From: Abditibacteriaceae bacterium
GTDB taxonomy: Bacteria; Armatimonadota; Abditibacteriia; Abditibacteriales; Abditibacteriaceae
DNA length: 33,454 bases
Direction of reading: 5' to 3'
Assembly: GCA_031425655.1 (NCBI GenBank)
Contig: JANPJS010000241.1
Span: forward strand, 1 to 33,454
Below, piece by piece: positions 3,257 to 31,874 of this stretch. Position 1 is the stretch's first letter. Each line of letters starts with the position of its first letter. A program made the translations under genes and the position numbers. The notes below the pieces were generated by a model. That model was not told the origin of the DNA. It saw only the letters and a list, made by a program, of their open reading frames with translations, and ran no database searches.

Positions 3257-4126
3257 ATGCCTCCAACTCCGCCGCGTCCCAAGAACCTAAAAAACGATTT
3301 TCGCGCTGCCTCACCGCCGCGCCGCGCACTTTGGATTAGTGTTTTGCAGGGCGCGCTTTTCGGGCTTCTGGCATATATTCTCCTCGACGACACCGGAGTG
3401 TTGAATTTACTGCCTTTGCTGCGGAATTGGCCGAATTTAGCGCTGATTTTTCTGGTTTCTGGCGGAGTAATCGGCGTTATGCGGCGCGAAAAATGGCTGC
3501 AAATTTTTACCGGCGTGGCAGCGATTTTATGGCTTGTCGTCGCGTTTTCGCCGCTCTCGGCGCGATTGGTGGGTCCGCTGCTGTTGCAGGCTGCGCCGGC
3601 GGAAATCGCGCGCGGCGCCGACGCCGTGGTCGTGCTGGCTTCGTTTATTCAAAGTGACGGCGAATTTACCAGCGATGCTTTGCATCGCTTGCTGCGTGCG
3701 ATTGAATTGATTCGCAGTGGCCGCGCGCCGCGTTTGGTGCTAACCGAAGTGCGTCCGCCAGCGGGTTCTTACAGCGTCGCGGCGAAAAAGCTGGCGGCGA
3801 ATCTGAAAATCCCCATCAATCTCATAACGCTCAAAGGCCCGATGGGCGACACGCACGACGAAGCCGTAGCCGTGGCAAAACTGGCCAAACAGCGCGGCTG
3901 GAAGCGAATTTTTCTTGTCACCTCGCCCACGCACACACGCCGCGCGAGCCTTGTTTTTCGCCACGCGGCGCGCGAAATCAAACTCGTGGTGTTGCCTGTG
4001 GCTTCGCAGGAAACCACTACTGATTTACAAACGCTCGACACGCCCGCCGACCGCCTGCGCGCTTTTGGTATGGCGATGCGCGAGGTCGTCGGATTGCAGA
4101 TTTATCGGCGGCGCGGATGGATTTGA
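3257..4126 (+). CDS. YdcF/DUF218 (SanA/ElyC-like) membrane protein
   Basis: N-terminal TM helices, ADAVVVLA, RLLRAIEL, DTHDEAVAV, IFLVTSPTHTRRA, MREVVGLQIYR. Start uncertain (3227 or 3257). Confidence 0.85.
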   Translation: MPPTPPRPKNLKNDFRAASPPRRALWISVLQGALFGLLAYILLDDTGVLNLLPLLRNWPNLALIFLVSGGVIGVMRREKWLQIFTGVAAILWLVVAFSPLSARLVGPLLLQAAPAEIARGADAVVVLASFIQSDGEFTSDALHRLLRAIELIRSGRAPRLVLTEVRPPAGSYSVAAKKLAANLKIPINLITLKGPMGDTHDEAVAVAKLAKQRGWKRIFLVTSPTHTRRASLVFRHAAREIKLVVLPVASQETTTDLQTLDTPADRLRAFGMAMREVVGLQIYRRRGWI

Positions 4127-4211
4127 CGGCAATTTTGAATTATGAATTATGAATTTTGAATTATTCGTCTGCTCAATTCAAAATTAAAAATTCATAATTC
4201 AAAATTGCCGT
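4126..4211. repeat. Palindrome of 7-nt tandem repeats (AATTWTG)4 / (MAWAATT)4
   Basis: Arms 4126-4162 and 4175-4211, 35/37 complementary, 12-nt loop, starting on the last base of the YdcF stop codon. Confidence 0.92.
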
Positions 4212-4284
4212 TTCAGGCAAGCGCGCCTAAACTCGCAGGGCCGTTCGACGGCGTGTGATTTTACGTTTCTCTGGAGAAATTTTA

Positions 4285-5901
4285 GTGTCTGAAAATTCTG
4301 TTCCGCGCCCTGTCATGCTGTGTATTCTCGATGGTTGGGGATTATCTGAACGCACCGATTACAACGCCGTCGCATTGGGAAATACGCCGAATTTCGACCG
4401 CATCTGGAACGCTTGCCCGCACACGAAACTCACGGCGCACGGCGTGGATGTCGGCCTGCCCGCCGGCGTGATGGGCAACAGCGAAGTTGGACACTTGAAT
4501 ATCGGCGCCGGACGCATCGTGTGGCAGGATTCGTCGCTGATTGATGCTGAAATCCGCAGTGGCGAATTTTTCAACAACGAAGTGATTCTGGCCGCCATGC
4601 GACACGCCAAATCGCATAATACGCGCCTGCATTTGTTGGGTTTAGTCTCCGACGGCAATGTTCACGCTTCGGAAGGGCATTATCTGGCGCTGCTCGAAAT
4701 GGCCCGGCGCGAAGGCTTGCAAGGCGACCGCGTCGTGTTTCACGTCTTCACCGATGGCCGCGATACGCCGCCGCAATCGGCGCAAAAGTATCTCGCCGCG
4801 CTCGAAGCGCAGATGCAGAAAACCGGCGCGGGCGTGATCGGTTCGGTCATCGGGCGTTACTACGCAATGGATCGTGACAACCGCTGGGAGCGCGTCCAAA
4901 CCGCCTACGATTGCCTGACTAACGGCAAAGGCGCGTTCGCCAAAAGCGCGGGAGATGCCATCCGCGAAGCCTACGCGCGCGGCGAAAACGACGAGTTCAT
5001 TCCCGCGACGATTATTGAAAACACGCCGCGCATCGGCGACGACGACGCGGTGGTTTTCTTCAATTACCGCTCCGACCGGGGCCGGCAATTGACGCAAGCG
5101 CTGATTGCCGCCGAATTTGATAATCATTTGCGCGAGGAATCGCAGCAGCCGGGCGCGACCGGCGCCGAAGACGTGCCGATTATCAAACATTTTCGGCGCG
5201 AAGTGTGGCCGCGCACGCATTTCGTGACCATGACGCAATACGCCAAAACTCTTGATGTGCCTTACGCTTTCGGCCCGCGTCCGCAGCGCGACGGATTGGG
5301 CGAAACCGTCGCTAAAGCCGGAAAAACGCAGCTTCGCATCGCCGAAACCGAAAAATATCCGCACGTCACCTATTTCTTTTCGGGCGGCATGGAAACGCCG
5401 TGGGATGGCGAAGAGCGCATCATGGTTCCCAGCCCAAAAGTGGCGACTTACGATTTGCAACCGGAAATGAACGCCGCTCAAGTCATCGAAAAAGTGACGG
5501 GCGCGATTCGCTCCGGGCACTTCGATCTGGTCGTTCTCAACTTCGCCAATCCTGATATGGTTGGGCACACCGGAATTTTGGAAGCGGCCATAAAAGCCGT
5601 CGAAACCGTGGACGCCGGTTTGGGTGAAGTTATAAAAGCGATTGACGACATGGGCGGCGCGCTTTTGGTGATTGCCGATCATGGCAACTGCGAGCAAATG
5701 ATTGACTACGAAACCGGCGAGCCGCATACCGCGCATACTACCAACCCTGTGCCGTGCATTTTGGTCGGCGCGGGCCAGACAAACGCGAAGTTGCGCGATG
5801 GCGGGCGTTTAGCGGACGTGTCGCCGACGCTGCTCGATTTGATGAGCGTGCCGAAGCCGGCGGCGATGACCGGCGAAAGTTTGATTCTACGAGAGGTTTG
5901 A
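4285..5901 (+). CDS. gpmI: 2,3-bisphosphoglycerate-independent phosphoglycerate mutase
   Basis: ILDGWG, MGNSEVGHLNIGAGR, DGRDTPP, GRYYAMDRD, AETEKYPHVTYFF, NFANPDMVGHTG, ADHGN, HTAHT. GTG 4285 is preceded by GGAG. Confidence 0.97.
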   Translation: MSENSVPRPVMLCILDGWGLSERTDYNAVALGNTPNFDRIWNACPHTKLTAHGVDVGLPAGVMGNSEVGHLNIGAGRIVWQDSSLIDAEIRSGEFFNNEVILAAMRHAKSHNTRLHLLGLVSDGNVHASEGHYLALLEMARREGLQGDRVVFHVFTDGRDTPPQSAQKYLAALEAQMQKTGAGVIGSVIGRYYAMDRDNRWERVQTAYDCLTNGKGAFAKSAGDAIREAYARGENDEFIPATIIENTPRIGDDDAVVFFNYRSDRGRQLTQALIAAEFDNHLREESQQPGATGAEDVPIIKHFRREVWPRTHFVTMTQYAKTLDVPYAFGPRPQRDGLGETVAKAGKTQLRIAETEKYPHVTYFFSGGMETPWDGEERIMVPSPKVATYDLQPEMNAAQVIEKVTGAIRSGHFDLVVLNFANPDMVGHTGILEAAIKAVETVDAGLGEVIKAIDDMGGALLVIADHGNCEQMIDYETGEPHTAHTTNPVPCILVGAGQTNAKLRDGGRLADVSPTLLDLMSVPKPAAMTGESLILREV

Positions 5902-6139
5902 ACGGGAGGCCCATGCGTGATTCAGGTTTAGCTGCCGTGCTGAGTTTTTTCATTCTACAAATACGCGCAGGAAAACCCGTCCCGTTCGCGTTACTAACAT
6001 CAAAACAACACCCGAACACCTGCTGAATCTGTTTCTCACGACCTTAACAATCATCGCGGTCGCCGCTTTGGTTTATGTCGTCCGCATCGGTTTTGGCGCG
6101 CGTTAAAAACCGCTGTGTTTTTGCAAATTAAGGATTATC

Positions 6140-7468
6140 ATGGCTGAATTTCTGCCCTTTCATGGCCTGCGCTACGATGGTAGCAAAGTGAATTTGAGCG
6201 ACGTTTTGTGTCCACCTTACGACGTGATTAAAGGCGCCGCGCGCGATGAACTTTTGAAGCGAAGCCCGCACAATATCGTCGCCGTCGAACTGGCCGCGCG
6301 CTACGGCGAAGACGCCACGCCGCAGCAATATGCGCACTCCGCCGCGTTGCTGCAACAATGGCGAGATGCCGGAATTTTAGTGCGCGACGACACGGCGTAT
6401 TACGTTTATGAGCAGGAATTTACCATTCCCGGCAGCGGCGAAGTGAAACAGCGGCGCGGTGTTCTGGGCGCGCTGCGCTTGGAAGAATTCGGCAAAGGCG
6501 TGCAGCCGCACGAACACACGCTCAGCGGCCCGAAAGCCGACCGATTGAACCTTTTGCGCGCTGCGAAAACCAATACCTCGCCGATTTTCGGCTTGTTCGG
6601 CGACGACGACGGCTGGGTCGCGTCAGTGATTGACGCCGTGACTCAGGAAGCGCCGCTGATGCAAGCCACCAGCGCCGACGGCGTGATCGAGCGCTTGTGG
6701 CGCGTGACCGACGACGAATCGGTCAACGCCATCGAAGCGGCTTTTGAAAACGAAGTGATTCTCATCGCCGACGGCCATCACCGCTACGAAACCGCGCTCA
6801 ATTATCGCAACGAAACCATGCAGGCCGCGCAGGATGCCGGGCGCGAATGGACGGGCGCCGAGCCGGAAAATTACGTGATGATGATGTGTGTCAGCACCAA
6901 CGATCCGGGCCTGATCGTGCTGCCAACGCATCGTCTTGTGAAAACGGGGCGCGTGGATTGGGCCGAGATTTTCGATGCGCTCGAAGTGCACTTCGAGGTC
7001 ACGCCGGTGGCTTCGGAATCGAACGCGCAGATTCAAGCGCAAGAGCTTCTGACGGCGCTGAACGCAGCCGACAAAGAAGCGCGTCCGTGTCTGGGAATGC
7101 ACATTGACGGGCAAAGTTACGTTTTGCATCTGCTGCCCGGCGACGAACATTTGCGCGCGATGGACAGCGAGCGCAGCCAGTCTTATAACGCCTTAGACGT
7201 GTCGCTTTTGCATACGCTAATTTTGCAAAACCAGTTCGGCATCGGCGCGGCGGAGTTAGCGGCTTACAGCCACGTCGGGTATACAATTGACGCCGCCGAA
7301 GCGATTGCCAAAGTCAACAGCGGCGATTACGGCGCAGCTTTCATTCTGCGCTCGACGCCGGTCGCGCAAGTGCGCGAAGTCGCCGCCGCCGGCGACAAAA
7401 TGCCGCAAAAGTCCACTTACTTCTACCCGAAACTGGTGACGGGTTTGGTTTTAAGGCCAATGCACTGA
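6140..7468 (+). CDS. DUF1015 family protein
   Basis: PFHGLRY, PPYDVI, PHEHTL, NTSPIF, IADGHHRYETA, LPTHR, MPQKSTYFYPKLVTGL. Confidence 0.93.
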   Translation: MAEFLPFHGLRYDGSKVNLSDVLCPPYDVIKGAARDELLKRSPHNIVAVELAARYGEDATPQQYAHSAALLQQWRDAGILVRDDTAYYVYEQEFTIPGSGEVKQRRGVLGALRLEEFGKGVQPHEHTLSGPKADRLNLLRAAKTNTSPIFGLFGDDDGWVASVIDAVTQEAPLMQATSADGVIERLWRVTDDESVNAIEAAFENEVILIADGHHRYETALNYRNETMQAAQDAGREWTGAEPENYVMMMCVSTNDPGLIVLPTHRLVKTGRVDWAEIFDALEVHFEVTPVASESNAQIQAQELLTALNAADKEARPCLGMHIDGQSYVLHLLPGDEHLRAMDSERSQSYNALDVSLLHTLILQNQFGIGAAELAAYSHVGYTIDAAEAIAKVNSGDYGAAFILRSTPVAQVREVAAAGDKMPQKSTYFYPKLVTGLVLRPMH

Positions 7469-7525
7469 GTTAGTTGATTCCAACACGCCGGGGGTTGAAA
7501 AACCCGGCCAGCTTTAGCTTGATGC

Positions 7526-7554
7526 TTATGGAGCGCAACAGGTTGTGCCCCTAA
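7526..7554. repeat. Degenerate REP-like palindrome
   Basis: TTATGGAGCGCAACAGGTTGTGCCCCTAA; its reverse strand starts TAGGGGCAC, resembling the GTAGGGGCG arm at 24584. A second hairpin GCCGGGGGTTGAAAAACCCGGC lies at 7487-7508. Confidence 0.45.
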
Positions 7555-7560
7555 CAATGC

Positions 7561-7606
7561 CAAAATTAACGGCCCGCCTGAAAATTCAGGCGGGCCGTTA
7601 ATTTTG
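7561..7606. terminator. Bidirectional terminator between convergent DUF1015 and bamA
   Basis: Perfect 22-bp inverted repeat CAAAATTAACGGCCCGCCTGAA-aa-TTCAGGCGGGCCGTTAATTTTG. Confidence 0.88.
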
Positions 7607-7618
7607 CGCGATGCGATT

Positions 7619-9808
7619 TTAGAACGAGGCGCCGATGCCGAAGTGAGTGCGGAAACCGCCGTTTTTGCCCTTGCCTAAATCGAGCCGAATCGGGCCAATC
7701 GGAGTTTGCACGCGAATACCGCCGCCGATGCCGACCAGAACGCCCTTCTCGCTGCCTGCCGTGTTGCTGGAGGAAAACAATCCGCCGGATGATTTTCCTG
7801 CGTCCACGAAGCCGACGATCTGGAATTTGCGCTGCAAGCGATAACGCAGTTCGATGTTGCCGAAGAATTGATTGTCGCCGAATTGCTCGTCGGTTTCATA
7901 GCCGCGCACGGTGTCGGAGCCGCCAATGAAATACTGCTCGAAGGCGGGCAACTGCCCGAACGATTTACCGATGACGATGCGCCCGGCCAGCACCAATTTC
8001 GGCTGTTCGTTCGCTTTGTCGCCCTTCATCAGCGGAATGTAGCGGCGCAGGTCAAGATCGAATTTCGTGAAATCGGTGTCGCCGCCTAATAATTTCAAGG
8101 CTTTTTCCACGACCAACTGCACGCGGCTGCCGCGCGACGGATCAAGTCGCAAATCGCGCCTGTCGCTCACATAGCCAATCGAAGGCGCTGTAATGCGGCC
8201 CGACGCGATGCCCGGCAACGAGGTAATCGTGCCGCTGAGATCGGTCTTGAACAAACGCGCTTTTTCGCCGCGAAAGCCAAAAATTAGCGACGATACGCGG
8301 TCGTAATCGAGCGGCATGGTGTAATCGAGCCGTCCGCCGGTGCGATGCTCTTCGTAAAAGTCCGTGTCCGGCAAACCTGTGATCAAGTTGACCGAGCGCG
8401 GTTCGCGGAAGATGCGCCGGCTATAAATCGAGGCGTTGTAAGAAGCGTTTTTATCGCCGATAAACGGATTGCCGTAGCCAATGTCGAAAGTCCGCACCGA
8501 ACCGAGTTCAACCGAGCCGGAAACGCGCTTGCCGGTGCCCTGAAAGTTGCTTTCCGAAAGCGTCACGAAGCCGGAAAGCTTCGAGCGACTGTCGAAGCCC
8601 ACGCCCAGCGTAAAGGTTCCGGTGCGCTTTTCCTTGACGCCGATAGTCACGATCAGAAAACCGGGCTTGTCGGCGTCGTCGTCGAGCTTAAAAGTGACGT
8701 CCTCGAAAAAGCCCGTATCGTAAAGACGGTTTAAATCAACCTGCAATCGCTTTTGATCGAACGGATCGCCGGTTTTGGTGCGAATCAAGCGGCGCAGCAG
8801 CGATTCGCGGGTTTTCTTCAAGCCCGAAATGGCGATTTTGGAGACTTTCGCTTCCTGCACAGTTAAGGAAATTCTGCCGTCCTCTTCCTGCTTGACTTCG
8901 GTGACCAGCGAGGCGAAACCGCGCTGGCGATAAAGCTCCTGAATACGCCCGACATCTTCGTTGAGCGTGTTCGAGTTGAGGACGGTGCCGATTTTGGTTT
9001 GCACCACTTTGAGCAGTTCCTCAGTCTTGATGGAATTGCTGCCGTTGATAACAAAACCCGTGACGGCACGGTTCTCGGCGACGACGAAGGCTACGTCTAC
9101 TTTGGTGGCGTCTTCGAGGTTGGGTGTCACTTGATATTGCACCGAAGCAAAGAATCCCATCGCGGCGATTTTGGAACGGTCAAGTTCGGCCTGGCGCGCC
9201 GAAAATGCGCCGCCCCGCCGCGTCATGTTCGCCTGCAAAAGCACCGATTCTTCGGGAATCACGCGCAAGCCGACGACGCGCACCTGGGCGATTTCGCGGC
9301 CTTCGGCGGCAGCGATGGTTTCGGCGCTGGGGCCACCCTGCGTGACCGAGGGAACGAGCGGGCCGGTTGTCGCCGGCACGCCGGGTTGGGGCAGACTGCT
9401 GCCGCCGGGGCCGGTCGGACGCGTGCCCTCACCGGTCGGCGGTTTGGGCTGCGGAAGTTCGGTGCTTTTGTCGGGGCCAACCGGAATCTTCAAGCCGTCC
9501 GGCTCGGTTTTGGAATCGGGCGAGGCCGCCGGTTTATTGGCCTGATTATTCGACGCCTGAGCCAACAACACGCGCGGCTTGCGCTCAGTTGTGGCGTTTG
9601 CGATGCGCGATCCGGCAACCGACGCGACTTGCGTGAGCTGCGGCGCGGCGTCCGTTTCTTCGGCGTTGGCGGGCACGAAGAGCGCGCCACCGAGCAAAGC
9701 AACGCCGCACGTCGCGGCCAAAAAGAAAGGCGCACGCGGCGCTTTCGTAAGTTCAGAAAAATACGGCGATTTGGGTGCGGCGAGGGGTGTGGTTAAAGTC
9801 CGGTGCAT
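7619..9808 (-). CDS. bamA: Omp85/BamA outer-membrane protein assembly factor (about 3 POTRA domains, Pro-rich N-terminal linker)
   Basis: Signal-like hydrophobic stretch, POTRA repeats (..GFFASV, ..YRQRGF, ..TGFFEDV), KEKRTG barrel start, GGSDTVRGY, TPIGPIRLDLG, C-terminal GIGASF. Confidence 0.92.
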   Translation of the reverse strand: MHRTLTTPLAAPKSPYFSELTKAPRAPFFLAATCGVALLGGALFVPANAEETDAAPQLTQVASVAGSRIANATTERKPRVLLAQASNNQANKPAASPDSKTEPDGLKIPVGPDKSTELPQPKPPTGEGTRPTGPGGSSLPQPGVPATTGPLVPSVTQGGPSAETIAAAEGREIAQVRVVGLRVIPEESVLLQANMTRRGGAFSARQAELDRSKIAAMGFFASVQYQVTPNLEDATKVDVAFVVAENRAVTGFVINGSNSIKTEELLKVVQTKIGTVLNSNTLNEDVGRIQELYRQRGFASLVTEVKQEEDGRISLTVQEAKVSKIAISGLKKTRESLLRRLIRTKTGDPFDQKRLQVDLNRLYDTGFFEDVTFKLDDDADKPGFLIVTIGVKEKRTGTFTLGVGFDSRSKLSGFVTLSESNFQGTGKRVSGSVELGSVRTFDIGYGNPFIGDKNASYNASIYSRRIFREPRSVNLITGLPDTDFYEEHRTGGRLDYTMPLDYDRVSSLIFGFRGEKARLFKTDLSGTITSLPGIASGRITAPSIGYVSDRRDLRLDPSRGSRVQLVVEKALKLLGGDTDFTKFDLDLRRYIPLMKGDKANEQPKLVLAGRIVIGKSFGQLPAFEQYFIGGSDTVRGYETDEQFGDNQFFGNIELRYRLQRKFQIVGFVDAGKSSGGLFSSSNTAGSEKGVLVGIGGGIRVQTPIGPIRLDLGKGKNGGFRTHFGIGASF

Positions 9809-9845
9809 AATCCCGGAGGTGCCTCCGATAAAAATCTCATAAAGA

Positions 9846-9868
9846 AACCCCGGCGGTTAACCGGGGTT
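9846..9868 (-). terminator. Terminator-like hairpin between the ECF sigma gene and bamA
   Basis: Minus strand AACCCCGG-ttaaccg-CCGGGGTT followed by TCTTT. Confidence 0.5.
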
Positions 9869-9887
9869 GCTTTGGTTCGCTTAAATT

Positions 9888-13700: not shown

Positions 13701-16700
13701 CAGGTCGCGCACCAGTTCAAACTGCTGCGCTTTCAGCACGCCGTTTTGCAGCGATAAATCGGCGTTTAAGGTGCCCAAAGGCAGGCCGCGCCAGCGCAAA
13801 TCGGCGGCGCGCATTTTGATGACGCCGGTTTGCGGTTCAAACGTCGGCTTGCCGTCGGGCGCGTGCAGCGCGCCGCTGAGCAAAATATCAGCGGTCAGGG
13901 CGCCGCGCACCGGCAGCGTTCGCAGCGGAAATTTAGCTTGTCCGGGCACGCGCGGCGCTTTTTGGCGAAGGTTATCCAAATCGTCGGCGGCACGCAGCAA
14001 ACGCGAGGCGCGCACGCCGTTGGCGACTAACTTCGCCTTCCAATCGCCTTTGGGGTAATCGGCCTGAAAGTCCGCCGTGAAGGGCGTGCCGTCGGCGGTT
14101 CCGCTGACTTCGCTGAGCGAAATTTTCGGGCCGTCCGGCGTGGAAGTGAAGGCTAATGCCCCGCCCGCTTGCTCAATACCGATGCCGAATGCCTGCGCCA
14201 AACGCACGGCGGCGCGTCCCGTGACTTTGGGCTGCCGCGCCGTCCCGCCAATTTGCGCGGTAGCCGAAAGCAAGCCGTCTACGTTGGCTTCGCGCTGCAA
14301 ATCGGCAAACTCGGCGATTTCGCCCAAGCGCGCGGCGCGCACGTCGGTAATAGTCGCTTTCAAATCGAGCGCGATGTCGTCCGCCGTTTTCGTAAGCGCG
14401 CCGGTGACGGAGGCGCGGGCGCCCTGACTCCAGACAGCGAAGGATTCCAGCGGCACGCTTTTCCATTCGGGCAAAGCCACGGAAAACGCGGTGCGCGCCA
14501 CGTCTATCGGCACTTCGGTGGTTTTCCAGCGCAGCGCGCCATCGTAAAGCCGCGCTTGAACTTTGGCCTGCACTTCGGCTCGCGTGCCCGAAAAATCCAC
14601 TTGCGCGAAGCTCGTCCCGCGCACACCCCAGTCGGTCAGATTAGAGTCGGGCGGAAGCACGACAAGATTTTTAATCTGCGCGGCGTCTATTTTTTCGGCT
14701 AAAAGCTGGCCATTTAAAGCGCCGTTTTCTTCCAACTTGAGATGCCCGTTCCACTCGCCGCCCAGCGCGTTGGCGACGAAGCGCGGCAAAAGCAGCGTTT
14801 TTCCGTCAAGAACGAACTCGGCGCGGGCTTCGCGGACGGGCAGATGCTTCGTTTGGCCGTTTTGCGGCGGCAAAGGCAATGTCGCGGCCTCGGTTTCCAG
14901 CGAGCCGGAAAGCTGCGGCAACAGCCCCGTCGCGTCTTGCGAAATGCTGCCGCGCAAGGCCACGCGCACCGCCTGACCGCTCGCGCCGTGCAGCCAGAGC
15001 GGCACGCCGAAAGCGTCCAGTTGAGTTTTGAGTTTTGAGTTTTGAGTTTTGAGTTCGGAATCGCCCAATGAAGCATTTCGCGCGGCTAAAATGGCTTCTC
15101 CGGCGAACTTCCAATCTTTGGCGGAGCGAAAACGCAGCGCGCCGCTGCCGCGCAAGCGCGCGTGATGAAGATTCGCCACGCCGTCACCCGAAAGCGGGCG
15201 CAGCGACGAGGCGGGCAAGGCGAAATCGAAGCGCGTTTGATAAACGTCGCGGGCACCGGGCCGCGAAGCCACGCGCACGCTGCCTTTTGCGTTGCCGATT
15301 AACTGAAGGTTTTGCGCCTTCAAATAAGGATTGATACGCTGCGCGTCCACCGTCACCTGGGGCGCGACAAGGGCGAAGCGCAAGCCTTCGGCGCCGCTGC
15401 TGACATCGCCGCGAAAGGCGCCCATGTCGCTTTGCGCGATGGCATCGGCAAGGCGAATGTTCTTGCCGTCGAAAGTCACTTCTGCGGCCACGTCGCGCAG
15501 ATTGATGTCGCGGATGGTCACGCGCGATAAGCGCACGGTTCCCGCGACGGACGGCAAGAGATTCGGCCCGGCGCCCGCGAAGCGCACCTGCCCGCTGACC
15601 GTGCCGATATTTTTGACTTCGCGCACCGCTTCCGGCGAAAGAGCCGCGAGATTGACGCGCGAAATGTCAACCGCCCCGGCGATGGCCTGGCCGCTCCAAT
15701 TATCCGGCGCGTTCGGCGTGGCGGTGACCACGCGCAGATTTTGCCCGCGCGCCGTGCCGTAGCGCGGAATGGTGCCGTTAAAGCCGCGCAAAGTAACATC
15801 AGCAGCGGCGGGCTGCGCGTTTAAATTAGCCCAGCGGCCCAGCACGTTCGCCGCGTTGGCACTGCCCGAAATCTGGCCGAGTTTTGCTTCGCGCCAGGCG
15901 CCCGAAACGCCGCCTAATTCGGTTTTGACCCATAATTGGCCTCGCGGCAAATTGTCGCGGCGTCCGCCGAAGCCTTTCCAGAAAACCGCGCCGTTGGCGC
16001 TCAGAGCGCGCAAATTTCCCCGGCGCGGCGCTTCGGCGACAACGCCTTTGGCGCGAAAATCGGTGCGAACGCGCGCCGTTTCGAAATTGGCGCCCGACCA
16101 CGATGCTTTGCCGTTCAATGTGGCGGCGACAGCGCGTCCGGCGCGCGGCTGCGTGGCGGCAACATCGCTGGCCGTAAAAGTGGCATCGCGCTGTGTTCCG
16201 GCCACGCGCACGTCGGCCTGCAAGCGCGCGGCACGCCCGGCACCCTGCGGCAGCGCGCCCGAAACGCCGGTTGCCACGAAGTGCGTTTGGATTCGCGGCG
16301 CAGTGCCCGGCGCAGCAGCGAACTGCAAATCGCCTTTGACAGATGCGGTTTGCGCGGCGCCGTCGAACGCCTGTCCGCGCGTTCCGGCACTTTGAAAAGT
16401 CGTTTCGAGGCGCAGCGGGCCATTTTTCGCGGCGGCTAATTTCGCGTTGGCAGTCAACGCCCCGCTTTTCCAATCGCCCCACTGCGCGTGCTGAAAACGC
16501 ACGTCCGGCGCTGCGGTTTGCGCGGTCAGTTGCACGCCGTTGGCATCGCCGGCGCCGTCGAGCGTGGCGGCGACATCGCTGCTTTGCGCCGCCCCGTAGT
16601 GCGGATGCGAAAACGCGAATTGCCTCACGCGCACCGGCCCGGCGAAGCGCACATTATTGGGATCGCCGGTCAGATGCAAGTCGAAGGAAGATTGCCCGCC

Positions 16701-18172: not shown

Positions 18173-18339
18173 TCAGGGCAATCGCATGAGAATAGGGTTT
18201 TGGGTTTTGGGTTTTGGGTTTTAGGTTTTGGATTCTGAACCGAGACGATCATGTCCGCACCCACTACCCAACACCCAACACCCAACACCCAACACCCAAA
18301 ACCCAAAACCCAAAACCCTATTCTTATACGTTTGCCTGA
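18173..18339. mobile_element. 167-bp MITE-like element with internal heptamer arrays
   Basis: Imperfect terminal inverted repeats 18173-18197 and 18316-18339, continuing into (GGGTTTT)n and (AACACCC/AAAACCC)n arrays, flanked by GGCTATCCT at 18164-18172 and 18340-18348. Confidence 0.65.
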
Positions 18340-18385: not shown

Positions 18386-19423
18386 ATGAGAAGCCGCTTT
18401 TCGCTGGGCCGTCGTTCACCGCGTGCAGTCGCCGACCCGAAGGCCAAAGCGCGCCGCAAAAAACGCGCATTGCTGGCCGTTGGAATCCTGCTTTGCGCTG
18501 CAGCTCCGACCTTCGTTGCTCAACTCCGGCTTTACCGTCGCAATCTGGCAATGGCGCGCGAAATTTTGCCGATTTTGCCCGTTTTAACTGCGCGCGACCG
18601 CCTGCTGGTTTTAGCGCCGCACCCCGACGACGAAACTTTAGGCGCGGGCGGCACCATCGCCGAAGCGCGGCGGCGCGGCCTTGCGGTGCGTATCGTGTTT
18701 CTCACCAACGGCGACGGTTCGCGCTCGACGCAACTCGCCGTAAATCTGCGCCAACGACGGCTTAACTCGTTTTCAGAATTAGCAAAGCTGCGCCAACAAG
18801 AAGCCACAAGCGCAACCCGCGCGTTGGGCGTGGCCACTCCAGATTTGATTTTTCTCGGCTATCCCGACGGCGGCACCAAAGAAATGCTGCTGCGCCACTG
18901 GACGCCGAATAACCTGTATCGCTCGCCGTTTACCGGCGCCGATTATGCGCCTTATGACAACGCGCGCACGCCAAACGCGCCATATTGCGGCGAGCAGGCA
19001 TTAGCCGATGTCACGTCTGTGCTGCGCGAGTTTCGTCCGACAATTGTTATCACTACGCATCCGCGCGACTCGCATTCCGATCATCACGCCGCTTATGAAT
19101 TCGCCGCAAAGTCGCTGGAACAACTGCGGAAAAATCCGCGCCAAGCGTGGGCCGAAGACACGCGATTGCTAACATTTATCGTGCATCACGGCCTGTGGCC
19201 GGTGCCTTACGGCTATCATCCCGACGCCACGCTTTCGCCGCCCGCCGACTTGAAAAGCGGCACGAATTGGATGCGCGCACCGCTGAATGCGACTTCACGC
19301 AGCGCGAAAAATGCCGCGCTCGAAGCGTATTCCAGCCAACTGGCGACCACGCCGAATTATCTGCGCTCGTTTCTGCGGCGCAACGAACTTTTCGGTTTAA
19401 TGGCTCCGCATGAACAAAAGTAA
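18386..19423 (+). CDS. PIG-L/LmbE family deacetylase with N-terminal membrane anchor
   Basis: LVLAPHPDDETLGAGG, VFLTNGD, FLGYPDG, DSHSDH, YSSQL. Start moved to ATG 18386 because the upstream frame is translated repeat. Confidence 0.9.
   Translation: MRSRFSLGRRSPRAVADPKAKARRKKRALLAVGILLCAAAPTFVAQLRLYRRNLAMAREILPILPVLTARDRLLVLAPHPDDETLGAGGTIAEARRRGLAVRIVFLTNGDGSRSTQLAVNLRQRRLNSFSELAKLRQQEATSATRALGVATPDLIFLGYPDGGTKEMLLRHWTPNNLYRSPFTGADYAPYDNARTPNAPYCGEQALADVTSVLREFRPTIVITTHPRDSHSDHHAAYEFAAKSLEQLRKNPRQAWAEDTRLLTFIVHHGLWPVPYGYHPDATLSPPADLKSGTNWMRAPLNATSRSAKNAALEAYSSQLATTPNYLRSFLRRNELFGLMAPHEQK
19223..19395 (+). repeat. 173-bp direct repeat, copy 1 (3' end of the PIG-L gene)
   Basis: Aligns without gaps to 20139-20311; 19 mismatches by manual count (about 89% identity). 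Confidence 0.95.
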
Positions 19424-20098: not shown

Positions 20099-20138
20099 TG
20101 TGATTTCGCTTATGTATTCGTGTTTAAGGCTACAAGCG

Positions 20139-20321
20139 GACGCCGCGCTTTCGCCTCCCGCCGACTTGAAAAGCGGCACGAATTGGATGCGCGCACCGCT
20201 GGATATAACCTCACGCAGCGCGAAAAAAACCGCGCTCAAAACATATTCCAGTGAACTGACCACCACACCGAATTATCTGCGCTCGTTTTTACGGCGCAAC
20301 GAACTTTTCGGCGGGGACTGA
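20139..20321 (+). pseudogene. Orphan 3' fragment of the PIG-L deacetylase gene (repeat copy 2)
   Basis: Encodes DAALSPPADLKSGTNWMRAPL...FLRRNELFGGD*, with no 5' part of the gene. Confidence 0.85.
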
Positions 20322-20698: not shown

Positions 20699-20741
20699 TG
20701 AGAATGTAGAATTGAGAATGGTGAATTCGGAAAGATTCTCA
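20699..20741. repeat. Degenerate heptamer array with a short inverted copy
   Basis: TGAGAAT GTAGAAT TGAGAAT GGTGAAT (20699-20726), and ATTCTCA (20735-20741) overlapping the next ATG. Confidence 0.6.
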
Positions 20742-22270: not shown

Positions 22271-22537
22271 ATGAAAGGTTTAGTTGACGCAAAGGTTTTC
22301 CTGCAAACGATGATTTCGCTGGCCTCAGCATCTTTGGGACTCGTTGCGGCGTTGGCATGGAACGAAGCCATTAAAGAAACGATTAAACGCCTGATGCCGG
22401 GCGGCGAAGGCTTGGGAGTTCTGTATTTGTATGCTGTGCTGGCAATAGTTCTCGCAATCGTCGTGCTGACGATTTTATCGCGTTTGGCAGCCCGAATCGG
22501 TGGCGACGCGGCCATCGCCCGCGAAGCCGAAGGATAA
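22271..22537 (+). CDS. DUF5654-like small membrane protein
   Basis: SLGLVAALAWNEAIK motif, two TM segments, AAGGAG RBS. Confidence 0.8.
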   Translation: MKGLVDAKVFLQTMISLASASLGLVAALAWNEAIKETIKRLMPGGEGLGVLYLYAVLAIVLAIVVLTILSRLAARIGGDAAIAREAEG

Positions 22538-22614
22538 ATTGACCACCGAGAACGCAAAGAGCGCCGAGAGAGGTTATTTCTCTCGGCGCTCTTTGCGTTC
22601 TCGACGGTCAATTT
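22536..22614. repeat. Palindromic element with 3 x 9-nt units per arm; probable bidirectional terminator
   Basis: Arms 22536-22571 and 22579-22614, 34/36 complementary. Units CACCGAGaa CGCAAAGag CGCCGAGag. Spans exactly from one stop codon to the convergent stop codon. Confidence 0.92.
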
Positions 22615-26154: not shown

Positions 26155-26172
26155 AGAAGTAAGACGATTTTT

Positions 26173-26236
26173 AACACAAAGACACGAAGGCACAAAGAAT
26201 CCTCTGTGATTCTTTGTGCCTTCGTGTCTTTGTGTT
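26173..26236. repeat. Perfect palindrome with 3 x 8-nt units (RCACRAAG) per arm
   Basis: AACACAAAGACACGAAGGCACAAAGAATC-ctctgt-GATTCTTTGTGCCTTCGTGTCTTTGTGTT, 29/29 complementary. Confidence 0.95.
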
Positions 26237-26284
26237 GAATTTACGCTTTGAATTGCGGCAGCGAGCGCTTCGACACCAATACTT

Positions 26285-27172: not shown

Positions 27173-27186
27173 GGTGAGTGTTCTTG

Positions 27187-27672
27187 TCAGCCGTTCAAAC
27201 CATCGCAGCAGCGATGCGCCGGCTGAATAATCATCAGCGAGCCGTGTTCATCGTTTGAGACTGCTAATGATTTGCCGGCGTGGTCGTGATCGAAATCGTC
27301 GCCTAAATCATCGGTGAGGACATAGATTTCCCATTCGTTGCCGTCCGGGTCGTGCGCCCAGATTTTGTCTTGTTTCGCATAACAGCACGTCGTATCGGCT
27401 TCGTCAAAAGTCGCCAAGCCCGCGTCTTGCAGGCGCTCTTTGGCGGCGTGAACTTCAGCGATGCTGGACACCTGAAAACCGAGATGGTCGAGGCTGCCCG
27501 CGCCCGGCGTAGTCGGGTTTTGCGTGAGCGCAAATTTCAGCGGCGGCTCGTTCAAGTCGAAATTCGCGTAGCCGGGCCGCGTTTTATGAGGCGGCACGCC
27601 GAAAAACGCCGTATAAAACGCGACGGAACGCTCCAAATCCGCAACTTTGAGCGAAAAATGCATTTTCGTCAT
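27187..27672 (-). CDS. ArsI/CadI-family VOC (glyoxalase-like) protein
   Basis: HFSLKVADLERSVAFY, RPGYANF, LDHLGFQV, TTCCYAKQDKIW..DPDGNEWE. GGGAG RBS before ATG 27672. Confidence 0.9.
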   Translation of the reverse strand: MTKMHFSLKVADLERSVAFYTAFFGVPPHKTRPGYANFDLNEPPLKFALTQNPTTPGAGSLDHLGFQVSSIAEVHAAKERLQDAGLATFDEADTTCCYAKQDKIWAHDPDGNEWEIYVLTDDLGDDFDHDHAGKSLAVSNDEHGSLMIIQPAHRCCDGLNG

Positions 27673-27751
27673 CGTTTTCTCCCTTCGCGCTAAGCTCAAA
27701 CGCCGAGTATAAACCGTTTATCATCGAATTTGTCAGACTCACACGAGGCCA

Positions 27752-27797
27752 CCCGACGATGAATCGGCGGGCTGAAACACAAAGCCCCGTCGGGGCT
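27752..27797. repeat. Two-hairpin REP-like element
   Basis: CCCGaCGAT-ga-ATCGgCGGG followed by AGCCCC-gtc-GGGGCT, between divergent genes. Confidence 0.55.
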
Positions 27798-27818
27798 GAG
27801 AAACGCGCAAGGATTGCC

Positions 27819-28985
27819 ATGAATCCGCTTCGCCTGCTTTTCACTTTGCTTTTGTGCGCCGCGACAAGCCACGCGGCGCCGTTAACCGGACGCCTCGCCT
27901 ACATTCAAAACGGTGCGGCTTATGTGGTTTCGCTGCCCAACGGAAAGCCGGCAAAACTGCCGCAATCGGGCAACACGTTTTTAGTGAGCATAGCGCCCAC
28001 AGGCGGCTCGGTGCTTTATTTCAACCAATTAAAAGCCGACTGCCGCGCTTATCTTTCGCGTCCGCCCTACAAAACGGCGCGGCGCTTGGACAAGCCATTC
28101 GACAGGTTCAAACCCGACTTCGCGCAGTGGACGCAGAGCGGCGCGGCAGTGCTATTGGCTTCGTGGGAGGAAAGCTATCTTTTCCGGCCCACGAGCGGCA
28201 CTTCCCTGCGCTTTCCAGACAGTCAGGCAGCACTTTCGCGCGATGGAAAGCAGGTCGCGTTCGCCACCGAAAAAGCAATCAAGCTGCGCCGAATTGGCGA
28301 TAAAAGCGAACGAGTGCTGTTTTCCGTCGCGCGCCCGCAGCCGCTTTTCGCGGCCTTGAAACGCGCCAAATATCCGAAGAACCTGCACGACTTGCAAAGC
28401 GCGATTTCGCCCGATTCGTGGAAAGACGCGACGATGTGGAATTTCGGCTCCCTGGCTTTTTCCGCCGATGGCAAAACGCTGAGGTTCGCCTGCAACGCGG
28501 GAATCGGCGCGGGCGCGGCGGGCAATACAACCTATTGTTGGTTCGCCTGCGACCTGAAAAGCGGACGTTTGGCCGCCTTGTCGAAACTTGGCGCGCTGTA
28601 TTCGCGTTTGCCCGCCAATGTGCAGCTTTCGCCCGACGGCGCGAAGCTGCTTTACGTTACTTCGGTTCATTCGAGCGCGATTGATAATCCCAGCGCGGTT
28701 TCCGTGCTCGATTTGCGGACGCAAAAGGAAATCGCGCTGTCCAAGCTGACAACCGCAAAGAAATACGATACAAATTTGGTCTATGGCGCGTGCTGGTCGC
28801 CCGATAATCGCGCCGTCGCGGCCTCGGCGCTTTATTACAGCACCGAAAACGTGCTGAAACAGGAAAACTGGCAGCCGCGCGACGCCGATTACACGCTGTA
28901 TCTGCGCGATTTAAACAATCGCACGCTGCGCGCCATTCCAGGCGCCGTCGCGCCGAGTTGGGGACGAGGAAGGGATGAGGGATGA
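27819..28985 (+). CDS. Secreted TolB-like/PD40 beta-propeller protein
   Basis: Signal peptide MNPLRLLFTLLLCAATSHA; blades LSRDGKQVAF, FSADGKTLRF, LSPDGAKLLY, WSPDNRAVA, APSW. Confidence 0.8.
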   Translation: MNPLRLLFTLLLCAATSHAAPLTGRLAYIQNGAAYVVSLPNGKPAKLPQSGNTFLVSIAPTGGSVLYFNQLKADCRAYLSRPPYKTARRLDKPFDRFKPDFAQWTQSGAAVLLASWEESYLFRPTSGTSLRFPDSQAALSRDGKQVAFATEKAIKLRRIGDKSERVLFSVARPQPLFAALKRAKYPKNLHDLQSAISPDSWKDATMWNFGSLAFSADGKTLRFACNAGIGAGAAGNTTYCWFACDLKSGRLAALSKLGALYSRLPANVQLSPDGAKLLYVTSVHSSAIDNPSAVSVLDLRTQKEIALSKLTTAKKYDTNLVYGACWSPDNRAVAASALYYSTENVLKQENWQPRDADYTLYLRDLNNRTLRAIPGAVAPSWGRGRDEG

Positions 28986-29016
28986 AGGCGGGGGGATGAG
29001 GGATGAGGGATGAGGG
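28961..29016. repeat. Heptamer array (GGGATGA)n supplying the stop codon of the beta-propeller gene
   Basis: GGGACGA, (GGGATGA)2 at 28972-28985, (GGGATGA)3GGG at 28993-29016. TGA 28983-28985 is the ORF stop. Confidence 0.9.
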
Positions 29017-29030
29017 CAGGTGATGAAAAG

Positions 29031-29065
29031 AAAACGGCGCTTTCCGATTTGGAAAGCGCCGTTTT
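29031..29065. terminator. Bidirectional terminator
   Basis: AAAACGGCGCTTTCC-gattt-GGAAAGCGCCGTTTT between the convergent propeller gene and the tRNA. Confidence 0.88.
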
Positions 29066-29070
29066 TACGA

Positions 29071-29153
29071 TGTCGCAGAGAGGACTCGAACCTCCACGGG
29101 GTTGCCCCCACTAGCCCCTCAAGCTAGCGCGTCTGCCATTCCGCCACTGCGAC
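29071..29153 (-). tRNA. tRNA-Leu(GAG), CCA not encoded
   Basis: Acceptor stem GTCGCAG/CTGCGAC plus A, D arm GCGGAATGGCAGACGC, anticodon arm CTAGC-TTGAGGG-GCTAG, long variable arm, GTTCGAGT T loop. Confidence 0.96.
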
Positions 29154-29158
29154 AAATG

Positions 29159-29497
29159 TTATTCGTTCAGGCCAAGCACAGCACGCCAAACGCGGTCGCC
29201 GAAGAGCATAATCACCAGATAAATCGCCAAAAACACGATGAAGTGGTAAATCGTGAGCTTATCGGTGGGAATGCCGGCCAATAAAGCGGTGAACAAGAGG
29301 CCAATGGCGCTCCATTTGGTGGCCGGTTTGAGGATGCGTTCGGCTCCGACCAACATATCCACGCTGCCGGCCTGACGTCCGCCGGTGGCGCCGATGCCCA
29401 TCACGCCGCCCTGCTGCGCCTTGTCGGTTTGCAAGGCCATCAGCACGACCAGCACAAGTGCGTTAAAAATTAATAATCCCAATGCAAAATTTGCCAC
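29159..29497 (-). CDS. secG: Preprotein translocase subunit SecG with an extra C-terminal hydrophobic segment
   Basis: TM1-LQTDK-Gly-rich loop-GAERILKPAT-TM2 pattern, GTG start with GAGG RBS, directly upstream of tRNA-Leu(GAG) as in the E. coli secG-leuU arrangement. Confidence 0.72.
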   Translation of the reverse strand: MANFALGLLIFNALVLVVLMALQTDKAQQGGVMGIGATGGRQAGSVDMLVGAERILKPATKWSAIGLLFTALLAGIPTDKLTIYHFIVFLAIYLVIMLFGDRVWRAVLGLNE

Positions 29498-29554
29498 AAA
29501 AAACCTCAATCTTCGGATGCGCAGCCGGCCAAAATCGCGGCGGCGCGAATTAAA

Positions 29555-29583
29555 ATTATAGACGAGTGGCACAAAGCGGTCAA
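29555..29583 (-). promoter_or_regulatory. Sigma70 promoter for secG and tRNA-Leu
   Basis: Minus strand TTGACC-N17-TATAAT. Confidence 0.75.
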
Positions 29584-29623
29584 GCAACGCCGCGCGTTTG
29601 ATAGAATCCAATGCGACGAATTT

Positions 29624-30463
29624 ATGAATCCTGAAAAAGTGAAAGCGCTCCTCGAAAGCGTTCAAAGCGGCGCCGTTTCCCCCGACGAGGCGCTGCACAA
29701 CTTGCGCGATTTGCCGTTTGAAGACCTCGATTTTGCCAAAGTTGACCACCATCGCGGTCTGCGACAGGGCTTTCCCGAAGTGATTTTCAGCCAGGGCAAA
29801 ACGGCGGCGCAAGTGGCCACCATCGCTAATGCGCTGCATTCGCGCGGCGCCACGGTTTTAGCCACGCGCGCCACGCGCGAAGCCTTCGACGCGGTGCAAA
29901 CCGCGATTCCTGCCGCCGAATATCACGAACTATCGCGCTTAATCCACGTTCGCGGCGAGGTGGCGCCTCATTTGCCGGGACGTGCCGGGGTTTTGTGCGC
30001 CGGCACCAGCGATTTGCCGGTCGCCGAAGAAGCCGCCATCACGCTCGAAGCCATGGGCGCGCACGTCGAGCGCATTAGCGATGTCGGTGTCGCCGGATTG
30101 CATCGCTTAATGCAATATCGCCCGGTTTTCAGCGAATGCGACGTGCTTATCGTGTGTGCGGGCATGGAAGGCGCTTTGCCCAGCGTGGTCGCAGGCTTAG
30201 TAGATGTGCCGGTCATCGCGGTTCCGACCAGCGTGGGTTACGGCGCGAGTTTTGGCGGTTTGGCGGCGTTGCTGGGAATGCTGAATTCCTGCTCCAACGG
30301 CATCGCCGTGGTGAACATTGACAATGGTTTTGGCGCCGCCTCCTTCGCCGCGTCCATTTTAAGAGGGATGAGGGCGGAAGTGCCTTTCATCCCTCATCCC
30401 TCATCCCTCATCCCTACTTATGTCTCTTCTATATTTCGATTGCTTTTCCGGGATTTCCGGTGA
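29624..30463 (+). CDS. larB: Nickel-pincer cofactor biosynthesis carboxylase LarB (AIR-carboxylase-like)
   Basis: FAKVDHHRGLRQGFPEVIF, AGTSDLPVAEEA, DVGVAGLHRL, AGMEGALPSVVAGL, PTSVGYG, MLNSC, VVNIDNGFGAA. The C-terminus runs through a repeat into larC. Confidence 0.93.
   Translation: MNPEKVKALLESVQSGAVSPDEALHNLRDLPFEDLDFAKVDHHRGLRQGFPEVIFSQGKTAAQVATIANALHSRGATVLATRATREAFDAVQTAIPAAEYHELSRLIHVRGEVAPHLPGRAGVLCAGTSDLPVAEEAAITLEAMGAHVERISDVGVAGLHRLMQYRPVFSECDVLIVCAGMEGALPSVVAGLVDVPVIAVPTSVGYGASFGGLAALLGMLNSCSNGIAVVNIDNGFGAASFAASILRGMRAEVPFIPHPSSLIPTYVSSIFRLLFRDFR
30364..30415. repeat. Asymmetric heptamer palindrome AGGGATGAGGG ... (TCATCCC)4T at the larB-larC junction
   Basis: 30364-30374 and 30387-30415, translated in LarB as GMRA..FIPHPSSLIP. 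Confidence 0.92.
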
Positions 30464-31874
30464 CATGGCGCTCGGTGCGCTGCTTGATTGCGGCGTGCCT
30501 GTCGAGGCGCTGCGCGAAGGTTTGGCTTCGCTGCCGGTCGAAGGCTGGCACATTGATGCGCAACCGACGCTGATTTCCGGCATTCACGCGATGGACGTGA
30601 CGATTTCGCTGCACGGCGTCACCGATGCCGACGAGCTGTTAGCAGTCGGCAGTCAGCAGTCGGCAGTCAGCAAGACTCACGAGCATTCTCACGAACACGC
30701 GCATCCGCACAGTCACGACGAACACCCGCATTCACACGAACACGCGCATTCACACGAACACGCGCATCCGCACGAACACGCGCATTCACACGAACACGCA
30801 CATCCGCACGAACACAGTCATTCACACGACCACTCGTCACTCGTCACTCATCACTCGTCACTTGCCCCTCACGGTCGTTCCATGGCGGAGATTCGGGAAG
30901 TCATCGCCGGCAGCGCGCTCAGCGAGCGTGTGAAAGCGACAAGTTTGGCGATTTTCGAGAAAATCGCGGCTGCCGAAGCCGAAATGCACCACACCACGTT
31001 AGACGATGTGCATTTTCACGAAATCGGCGGCGTGGATTCGCTGCTCGATATTTGCGGAGTGGCGTGGTGTCTCGAATATCTGGGCGCCAATGAAGTGCAT
31101 TGCTCGGCGCTGCCATTATCAAGCGGTTTCGTGGATTGCGCGCACGGGCGGATGCCGGTTCCGGCGCCTGCAACGCTGAAAATTTTGCAGGGCGTGCCGC
31201 TCTACCCGACCGAGGTTAAAGGCGAACTTATCACGCCGACCGGAGCCGCGATTGTGGCCACGCTGGCGCAAAGTTTCGGCGCGCCGCCCGCTTTCGCGCC
31301 GCACGCCGTCGGGCACGGCGCGGGAAAAAAACGCTTCGCCGACCGGCCCAATATGCTGCGCGCTGTTCTCGCAGAGCGCATGGCGGCGGCTGTGGCCAAT
31401 GACGGCCTCGACTGGCAAAACCTGCGCGTCATCGAGTGCAACATTGACGACATGAACCCGGAACTTTTCGATTACGTCATGGCGCGGCTTTTTGAAGCGG
31501 GCGCGCTCGATGTGTGGCTGCACAGCGCGCAAATGAAGAAAAACCGGCCCGCCACGATTCTGCACGCGCTGTGCGCGCCCGATTCGCAAGACAAACTCAT
31601 CGCCGTTTTGCTGCGTGAAACCACGACTTTAGGCGTGCGCGTGCGCGAAGTGCGCCGCGCCGCGTTGCCACGCGAAGTGCGCGATGTGGAAACACCCTTT
31701 GGCAGCGTGCGCGTCAAAGTCGCGCGCTGGCCGGAGCAAAACCTGTGGCGCGCCGTGCCCGAATACGACGACGTGGCGCGCGTGGCAGCGGAGCGCGGCG
31801 TGGCGGCGCAAGAGGTTTATCTGGCGGCGCAACAAGCCGCGCGCGACAGCGAAGCCAAAAATCCTGCCGCGTGA
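30420..31874 (+). CDS. larC: Nickel-pincer cofactor nickel insertase LarC (single ORF, His-rich loop)
   Basis: YFDCFSGISGDMALGAL, VHFHEIGGVDS, CAHGRMPVPAPAT, GELITPTGAA, ECNIDDMNPE, GALDV, MKKNRP, ETTTLGVR, PEYDD. Confidence 0.95.
   Translation: MSLLYFDCFSGISGDMALGALLDCGVPVEALREGLASLPVEGWHIDAQPTLISGIHAMDVTISLHGVTDADELLAVGSQQSAVSKTHEHSHEHAHPHSHDEHPHSHEHAHSHEHAHPHEHAHSHEHAHPHEHSHSHDHSSLVTHHSSLAPHGRSMAEIREVIAGSALSERVKATSLAIFEKIAAAEAEMHHTTLDDVHFHEIGGVDSLLDICGVAWCLEYLGANEVHCSALPLSSGFVDCAHGRMPVPAPATLKILQGVPLYPTEVKGELITPTGAAIVATLAQSFGAPPAFAPHAVGHGAGKKRFADRPNMLRAVLAERMAAAVANDGLDWQNLRVIECNIDDMNPELFDYVMARLFEAGALDVWLHSAQMKKNRPATILHALCAPDSQDKLIAVLLRETTTLGVRVREVRRAALPREVRDVETPFGSVRVKVARWPEQNLWRAVPEYDDVARVAAERGVAAQEVYLAAQQAARDSEAKNPAA
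30641..30672. repeat. Heptamer array (RGCAGTC)4 inside larC
   Basis: AGCAGTC GGCAGTC AGCAGTC GGCAGTC AGCA, translated AVGSQQSAVS. Confidence 0.9.
30678..30830 (+). repeat. 18-nt coding repeats forming the LarC His-rich loop (HEHAHS/HEHAHP)
   Basis: CACGAACACGCGCATTCA and CACGAACACGCGCATCCG units in tandem. Confidence 0.9.
30831..30862. repeat. Heptamer array (CACTCRT)4 inside larC
   Basis: CACTCGT CACTCGT CACTCAT CACTCGT CACT, translated HSSLVTHHSSL. Confidence 0.9.

Follow-up and report, generated by a model that had tools for sequence, protein, structure and literature searches.

Tandem arrays of seven-nucleotide (nt) units occur in several bacterial lineages; the short tandemly repeated repetitive (STRR) sequences of cyanobacteria, for instance, are heptamer repeats comparable to the TAACTGA repeats of Beggiatoaceae. 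This work concerns eight arrays of this kind in a 33,454-nt stretch of DNA (hereafter the window), contig JANPJS010000241.1 of assembly GCA_031425655.1 from an Abditibacteriaceae bacterium (contig C241 of genome G000 in our nomenclature; 5.98 Mb, 327 contigs). We conclude that such arrays are very probably the arms of gene-less copies of a cassette in which a left and a right arm enclose a gene for a four-helix-bundle protein of the TIGR02436/PF05635 (IVP/Avd-like) family. Each clade of this protein is associated with a repeat word of its own.

The architecture itself is already published for Xanthomonas, Nostoc and Geobacter. According to the sections of Rehm et al. 2015 (PMC4692102) on which we draw, GGGAATC in Xanthomonas and GGGGAYT in Nostoc are heptamer repeats, interpreted as G-quadruplexes, which resemble the present arrays in their period of 7, their preference for four units, their convergent pairing (70-75 pairs per Xanthomonas genome) and their location between open reading frames (ORFs) that are aligned, with the G-rich strand right after stop codons and the antisense strand before starts. 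They differ in that each genome has one word, that most repeats lie between the same genes in both species, and that those sections name no protein partner. The paired heptamer and octamer "global regulator binding sites" of Geobacter metallireducens, as given in the excerpts used of Aklujkar et al. 2009 (PMC2700814), also comprise several classes of paired tandem 7-8-mers, one of them with five heptamers, and in G. sulfurreducens another repeat occupies the proBA gap; in these excerpts, however, the sites are attributed to IHF/HU or unknown regulators and a single swap is recorded. TAACTGA, for which MacGregor 2015 (PMC4679880, main text) considers host RNA-binding candidates, is the complement of AGTTATC, a word with the A[AG]TT core described below, and mostly ends just ahead of start codons in the manner of a right arm, but it forms direct repeats, and the term "helix bundle" does not appear in that main text.

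Likeness of another kind is offered by the REPIN-RAYT system which, in the portions of 10.1101/2024.10.14.618302 consulted, features inverted pairs that lack a gene, multiple populations in a genome which are each tied to a protein of their own, and conserved spaces that other types have apparently overwritten; here, in contrast, the arms are tandem arrays instead of short palindromes, and the enclosed gene encodes a four-helix bundle instead of an HUH transposase. Finally, ORF-bearing 23S rRNA intervening sequences and the Avd proteins of diversity-generating retroelements (DGRs) involve the same PF05635 family and a pentamer, and Avd is described, in the partial sources used, as binding a stem-loop of its own element's RNA, whereas the present arrays lie at mRNA junctions and no reverse transcriptase was found in the genus. 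A link between the protein family and the repeats was not found in print, in a search that left most subscription papers outside. What is added here is the presence of several protein-word pairs in one genome, a cross-phylum test of clade against word, the count of five motifs, the reuse of junctions over 828 gene ends, and evidence from loops for copying.

Over the whole assembly, Tandem Repeats Finder (TRF) reported 546 arrays of at least three copies with period 7, against 2, 13, 153 and 58 at periods 5, 6, 8 and 9. A second detector, which required at least four copies, found 335 arrays in the genome and none in block-shuffled DNA. All eight arrays listed in an earlier, sequence-only reading of the window were recovered by TRF and inspection. 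The consensus RRTNNNS which that reading had derived from them is enriched on independent loci: beyond the window it matches 83% of the arrays (448 of 537), where units with shuffled letters reach 41%, and in DNA of congeners 70% (124 of 178; 40% shuffled). It is not universal, however: A-ending and GG words (AAGTGAA, AAATGCA, GAAGTCA, GGGGCTG, GGAGGCG) violate it, and in GATGAGG the invariant part is GA[GA]G, so that the RRTNNNS frame is out of phase there. The unit is better described as a tetramer plus three freer bases. The fixed polarity proposed for facing arms was confirmed, since among 142 close inverted pairs the left arm is richer in G than in C in 137, the reverse in none and tied in five; for 31 congener pairs the figures are 27, 2 and 2. 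This polarity is the fixed inward orientation of terminal arms.

Because the period excess, the polarity and the motif hold on independent loci, the contention that ordinary slippage is insufficient stands. A polymerase that slips preferentially by 7 nt (Mrazek 2007, as cited in the parts used of PMC4679880 and PMC4692102) would fit the tail of long arrays, which reaches 197 nt, and the different copy numbers of sister copies, but it predicts neither inverted pairing, polarity and stop-codon position nor the 32-nt length peak, the shared loops and the tie of protein to word described below; the polarity and loop data already largely refute it, and we regard it as very improbable.

Seven TIGR02436/PF05635 genes reside in the genome, none of them within the window; six are bracketed by heptamer arms with the same polarity as the arrays, and the seventh mostly by 8-mers. 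A tie of such arrays to four-helix-bundle genes, which the sequence-only reading had offered, is thus borne out by the matching arms around these genes. The two commonest array families, GAGTTTT/GAATTTT (169 and 38 arrays) and GAGTGAC (48), are the words of the cassettes on contigs C92 and C262. Gene-less copies and cassettes have variant units in common, together with an AACGGC end (11 arms), and the loop of the cassette on C74 is common to gene-less copies. For several words without a resident gene here, a cassette exists in relatives: GGATGAA (loci L092 and L098), GGTTTTT (L094), AAATGCA (L090) and GAATTGA (L113). A further genome, G022, contains a dispersed arm haplotype that an arm of a resident cassette shares in identical form. 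Nine pairs of matching arms lie 150-3000 nt apart, of which three enclose four-helix genes and one is C161, with 8-mer arms; other recurrent cargo was sought between arms and dismissed, the remaining pairs holding unrelated single genes or nothing called.

A survey of cassettes in this genome and its relatives took in 76 loci, of which 75 were matched, 72 had usable flanks and 49 had two periodic arms; the upstream and downstream words of these agree in 41 of 49 (11% under permutation). To examine how clade relates to word, we took the 80 best-matching relatives of the protein encoded by C92 (53-78% identity), which are spread over Cyanobacteria, Bacteroidota, Chloroflexota, Planctomycetota, deltaproteobacteria, Acidobacteriota and others. 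Among their 76 scorable loci the best period is 7 in 74 and both arms are periodic in 59; the A[AG]TT core is found in 42 of these 59, whereas in the other clades 1 of 54 cassettes has it. Since arms turn over fast among congeners yet the core holds across phyla, we infer that it may be kept through selection by recognition. Over all clades, the correlation of protein and word distances is weak (Mantel rho -0.09). The supposition that the array sequence is free did not hold, since the arrays draw on a limited set of words and every word is tied to one clade of the protein. Nor is the period strictly fixed: two four-helix clades carry 8-mer arms (L003, L083, L085, L093, L102 and L045; L084 and L091), and the period is therefore clade-specific.

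Array lengths peak at 32 nt, with 455 arrays at 29-35 nt and a drop to 68 at 36-42 nt. Five tetramers were counted in 210 of 338 hairpin arms, and five is the mode for cassette flanks (49 of 152; 2 when shuffled). In 2RLD, the structure nearest to the family (E 1.7e-28), an entry contains five chains. Avd is a pentamer, all five protomers of which touch one RNA stem-loop according to the portions used of bioRxiv 2023.10.23.563531, and a reference title in PMC10053308 describes Xcc0516 as an assembly of five four-helix bundles. One motif may be read by each subunit of a pentamer. G-quadruplex elements, the interpretation favoured in the sections used of Rehm et al. 2015 (PMC4692102), have in their favour an equal preference for four units and an equal position, and a few words here are G-rich (GGGGCTG, GGGTTTT); the present arrays share the period of 7, the number of about four units, the convergent pairing and the position after stops between aligned ORFs with the Xanthomonas/Nostoc type. 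Their commonest words GAGTTTT, GAGTGAC and GAATTTT, however, contain no G-tract and take the place of G-rich ones at the same junctions. These words refute the explanation in its general form, and we hold it to be extremely improbable.

With gene calls made in this analysis (4447 genes), 170 hairpins were placed, 11 of them within genes. Those in intergenic regions lie between co-directional genes in 135 of 150 cases (background 75%, p 1e-5); among these 135, the left arm begins no more than 8 nt from a stop codon in 108, and in 80 the right arm is followed within 6 nt by an ATG that lacks a Shine-Dalgarno-like word. This arrangement, like the reuse of junctions with other words and even other repeat families, would suit a stem selected by the host for translational coupling or mRNA processing, the words of which drift by slippage and template switching while cassettes merely use the same hairpins. 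Such an origin would leave unexplained the identical loops at unrelated loci and a word that tracks the protein clade across phyla; the arms of one hairpin are no closer than permuted arms (3.85 vs 3.80 mismatches), and on the sense strand A.C mismatches outnumber G.U (223 vs 150). We consider it unlikely. The mismatches also led us to reject two further candidates, namely copying of one arm from the other, for which no locus-specific outer extension was seen either, and selection for RNA pairing on the transcript, as hairpins with A.C exceed those with G.U by 74 to 37.

Solo arms, of which there are 181, keep to this arrangement: 62 are left arms that follow a stop and 35 are right arms that precede a start, while clear reversals number 1-2. 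Together with the left arm directly ahead of the four-helix gene's own start, this distribution speaks for a regulatory network in which the arms are binding sites of the paralogous pentamers, which thereby govern how operon mRNAs, their own among them, are translated or how stable they are, and sites spread by host gene conversion without copying by the protein; comparable ideas appear in the parts used of MacGregor 2015 (PMC4679880) and Aklujkar 2009 (PMC2700814). A regulon, however, should hold one word per gene, yet 30 of 48 shared junctions differ (below), and arrays survive without the gene in genome G011. We rate such a network as quite unlikely to be the explanation.

Non-repeat loops recur at unrelated loci: the element at 18195 of the window has six copies, an AAGTGAA element six, and the GAGGGAT family 22 of 23 pattern matches. 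Shared loops occur in both orientations (25 vs 23 pairs) and double variants are linked (odds ratios 6.5 and 5.6). It follows that elements are copied in their entirety from one locus to another and may take up either orientation there. Target-site duplications of 2-6 nt were at about the permuted level, the best size being 5 nt (4.3% vs 1.9%, P 0.03 uncorrected), in a comparison that had no strain-level empty sites. Compared with DDE-derived miniature inverted-repeat transposable elements, the arrays do have terminal inverted repeats in common with a gene-bearing element, but neither target-site duplication nor a transposase parent was found, the parental ORF being PF05635/TIGR02436. They resemble the REPIN-RAYT system in having two inverted units around a short spacer, in occurring in many copies and outside genes, and in their overwritten spaces (30 of 48 co-occupied junctions differ in word or period), whereas no HUH (Y1) gene is flanked and the units are tandem non-palindromic heptamers. 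The unit of a REPIN is palindromic and short and bears a GTAG/CGTC tag. Two candidate movers were discarded: a retro-element route, for which the genus has no PF00078 match and the correlation is 0.26, and RAYT.

The same junctions carry different words in different genomes. Between elyC and pgm, four congeners have AATTWTG, GATGAAG, AATGCGG and GATGAAG, in each case a word that a resident cassette of the genome concerned also carries. We compared 828 orthologous gene ends of G000 with 2.03 Mb (about 38%) of the congener G003; an array was present in both at 56 ends, in G000 alone at 119, in G003 alone at 44 and in neither at 609 (odds ratio 6.5). Where both have an inverted partner (48 ends), the word, called automatically and mis-oriented in some cases, is the same at 10, two bases apart at 8 and more different or of another period at 30. 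Array detection in this comparison under-calls degenerate arms (sub-threshold signal 23% vs 4%). Some junctions hold four words in four genomes, and the site of the C54 cassette is, in G003, an empty hairpin of another word. Identical arrays at orthologous sites, the outcome that had been named as speaking against a dedicated machinery, are thus not what was observed, the sites being reused with different words. In regions chosen as rich in occupied junctions, a third congener has an array at 9 of the 22 ends occupied in both genomes, compared with 5 of the 32 occupied in G000 only (p 0.058), 3 of 7 in G003 only and 9 of 66 in neither, counts that suit direct overwriting as well as repeated insertion into a permissive third of junctions; with just 9 of 22 filled, we abandoned the notion of junctions that are always occupied.

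Other repeats use such junctions as well. Hairpins with 8-9-mer arms directly follow stop codons at 767-873, 22536-22614 and 26170-26239 of the window. Eight of the nine GxxExxY (TIGR04256) genes of the genome, which we take to be nuclease-linked, are flanked by inverted arms of 8-10-mers, the arm upstream of that on C143 matches the hairpin at 767, and 8-10-mer and heptamer hairpins alternate at orthologous junctions, as a parallel system. Hairpin families of the CCCCTCCCC and GTCATTCTGAG types also occupy stop/start junctions (G000 C26:32369; L066; L058), and at one such site congeners carry heptamer hairpins instead. A 15-nt word, GGGYGCCCTYTGGGC, has 277 occurrences genome-wide (for example on G000 C85, C89, C65 and C298, and at L092), none of them in the window, and is present in G001 and G003 too; by eye it lies inside several unrelated repeat families, taking the place of part of an arm, and is possibly a very small element parasitising other repeats. 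A test for periodic flanks (9 of 277 vs 6 of 300) did not capture the pattern seen by eye.

Taken as a whole, the explanation that we favour, and think somewhat more likely than not, is that the arrays are arms of non-autonomous cassette copies, handled by a word-specific protein, that overwrite junctions. Specific binding of the arms by the protein is likely; its participation in copying is possible, though we lean slightly against it. On this model a pentameric protein would bind one five-motif arm, one motif per subunit and most likely single-stranded. Elements would land at operon stop/start junctions, where newcomers would time and again displace what stood there before, either the complete element or a single arm, and leave no target duplication. 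They would do so by a recombination-like route in which the protein provides the specificity and a host or other enzyme the catalysis. Hosts may tolerate the elements because the stem brings a stop and the start that follows into one fold, which a ribosome could open as it terminates.

Several observations weigh against this cassette model. The tie of protein to word could come from co-transfer of the cassette as a unit. No resident cognate was found in the 327-contig assembly for the GAGGGAT, GGGTTTT and AAATGCA arrays, nor an exact match among residents for the dominant words listed for G012, G014 and G024. In GAGGGAT arms the commonest number of motifs is four (19 of 34), and the length peak is flatter in G003 (87 vs 82). 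Simple arithmetic shows that independent insertion into about 37% permissive junctions yields an equal overlap of two genomes. Of possible enzymes, no PF00078 reverse transcriptase matched at E<=1e-8 in G000-G003 (79-97% complete), none of 17 Y1 (PF01797) transposase genes in four congeners lies near 5-10-nt tandem arrays, and we know of no catalytic site in the four-helix fold. Among genomes without the four-helix gene, 10 of 11 have no more than five array matches, but the exception, G011 (one contig, 93% complete), has 53 matches to AATGATG/AATACGG (L073-L078) and no PF05635 at E<=10; its arrays may be orphaned or have another partner. Across 41 genomes, with related ones not independent, array matches correlate with the number of four-helix genes (0.66) almost equally as with that of GxxExxY genes (0.62), and the correlation was dropped as unspecific support. 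A dedicated machinery that writes or moves the arrays, as the sequence-only reading had proposed, is accordingly not borne out, no enzyme being linked to them and the arrays of G011 lacking the gene.

Within the window, the gene-less hairpin at 4127..4210 (no strand assigned) consists of a left arm of five AATTWTG motifs (4131-4164), a 10-nt loop and a right arm of five motifs (4175-4206), with CGGC/GCCG ends and a fold of -39.7 kcal/mol (z -8.65). It starts at the stop codon of an elyC-like gene upstream of pgm, its end and word family match the C92 cassette, and three congeners have other words at the site. Directly after it, TAAACT/TACACT at 4228-4233 is kept in four congeners before pgm, and presumably resembles a -10 box for that gene. 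A solo GAGTTTT arm lies on the minus strand at 15021..15055, its complement being read in frame within a TamB-like gene (ELKTQNSKLKTQ); it is absent at the matching position in 4 of 4 relatives.

The divergent gap between tamB and a deacetylase gene holds a gene-less hairpin at 18177..18336 (no strand assigned), with GGGTTTT/GGGTGTT arms of 55 nt that are 89% complementary and a non-repeat loop whose family occupies six places in the genome; the element is absent in 4 of 4 relatives. An in-frame reading of this array through a start at 18251 is left in doubt, that start being uncertain, with homologue alignments beginning at residues 46, 13, 31 and 78. In this deacetylase region, a 173-nt, 89% identical duplicate of the gene's 3' end is found (19223-19395 and 20112-20321), the gene stops about 160 codons before the congener ends, and two unrelated small ORFs are inserted ahead of the gene for a sugar ABC ATPase. 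At 20699..20740 (plus strand), what had been taken for facing arms is a solo left arm of five GAA[TA] motifs of the GAATTGA family, also the word family of cassette L113, with a weak fold (z -0.7) and, as partner, a right-arm remnant of 7 nt that ends where the ATPase has its ATG; AATTGAG is the commonest word across 2 Mb of G003.

A solo GAGGGAT left arm at 28961..29016 (plus strand) provides the final codons and the stop of a TolB-like gene, whose homologues (2 of 2) terminate earlier with no array. A tRNA-Leu(GAG) lies beside this gene at 29069-29154, and the gene on its other side, which we take to be secG-like, differs in congeners. At the larB-larC junction, a GAGGGAT hairpin at 30364..30415 (no strand assigned; fold z -4.5) has a short left arm, a right arm of 4-5 units and an ATG 4 nt beyond; the congeners show a 10-mer hairpin (G001), GGTTTTR hairpins (G002, G003) or none (G005). 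Through this hairpin larB reads on to overlap larC by 44 nt (30420-30463), and in G001 it likewise reads into its own 10-mer hairpin. In larC, a five-motif left arm (CAGTCRG) at 30641..30672 on the plus strand stands in frame at the start of the His-rich loop, and its non-matching partner at 30831..30862 on the minus strand, a five-motif right arm of the GAGTGAC family (the word of the resident C262 cassette), stands in frame at its end; both are absent in 4 of 4 relatives. The 18-nt tandem repeat encoding the loop (30713-30833) varies in all relatives, and only here do two in-frame arms flank it. About five further mismatched left/right pairs occur elsewhere in the genome, and pairs of this LarC type suggest arm-wise replacement. 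The six window arrays other than those at elyC-pgm and larB-larC are absent at alignable homologous positions.

The array family works like REPIN-RAYT and yet lacks that system's defining enzyme, and a categorically new mechanism is plausible. As a tentative generalization, which we would not rate as probable, PF05635 proteins might be the specificity factors of undescribed miniature selfish elements, their pentamers reading five motifs of their own word, directing the overwriting of hairpins at operon stop/start junctions with borrowed enzymes and competing there for the same slots with the parallel, nuclease-linked 8-10-mers of GxxExxY; a large part of the surplus of heptamers in bacterial genomes, STRR, GGGAATC and TAACTGA repeats included, would then be explained. 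Reports that 7-nt repeats are in excess in bacteria go back to 2007 and name no cause, and a protein partner is now indicated; PF05635, in turn, is a widespread family with no known function outside DGRs. If the specificity holds, the family would be a natural set of sequence-specific nucleic-acid-binding pentamers, and the overwriting of junctions would be a general force remaking stop codons, protein termini, loops and ribosome-binding regions, a remodelling of the kind visible here in TamB, LarB, LarC and the TolB-like gene.

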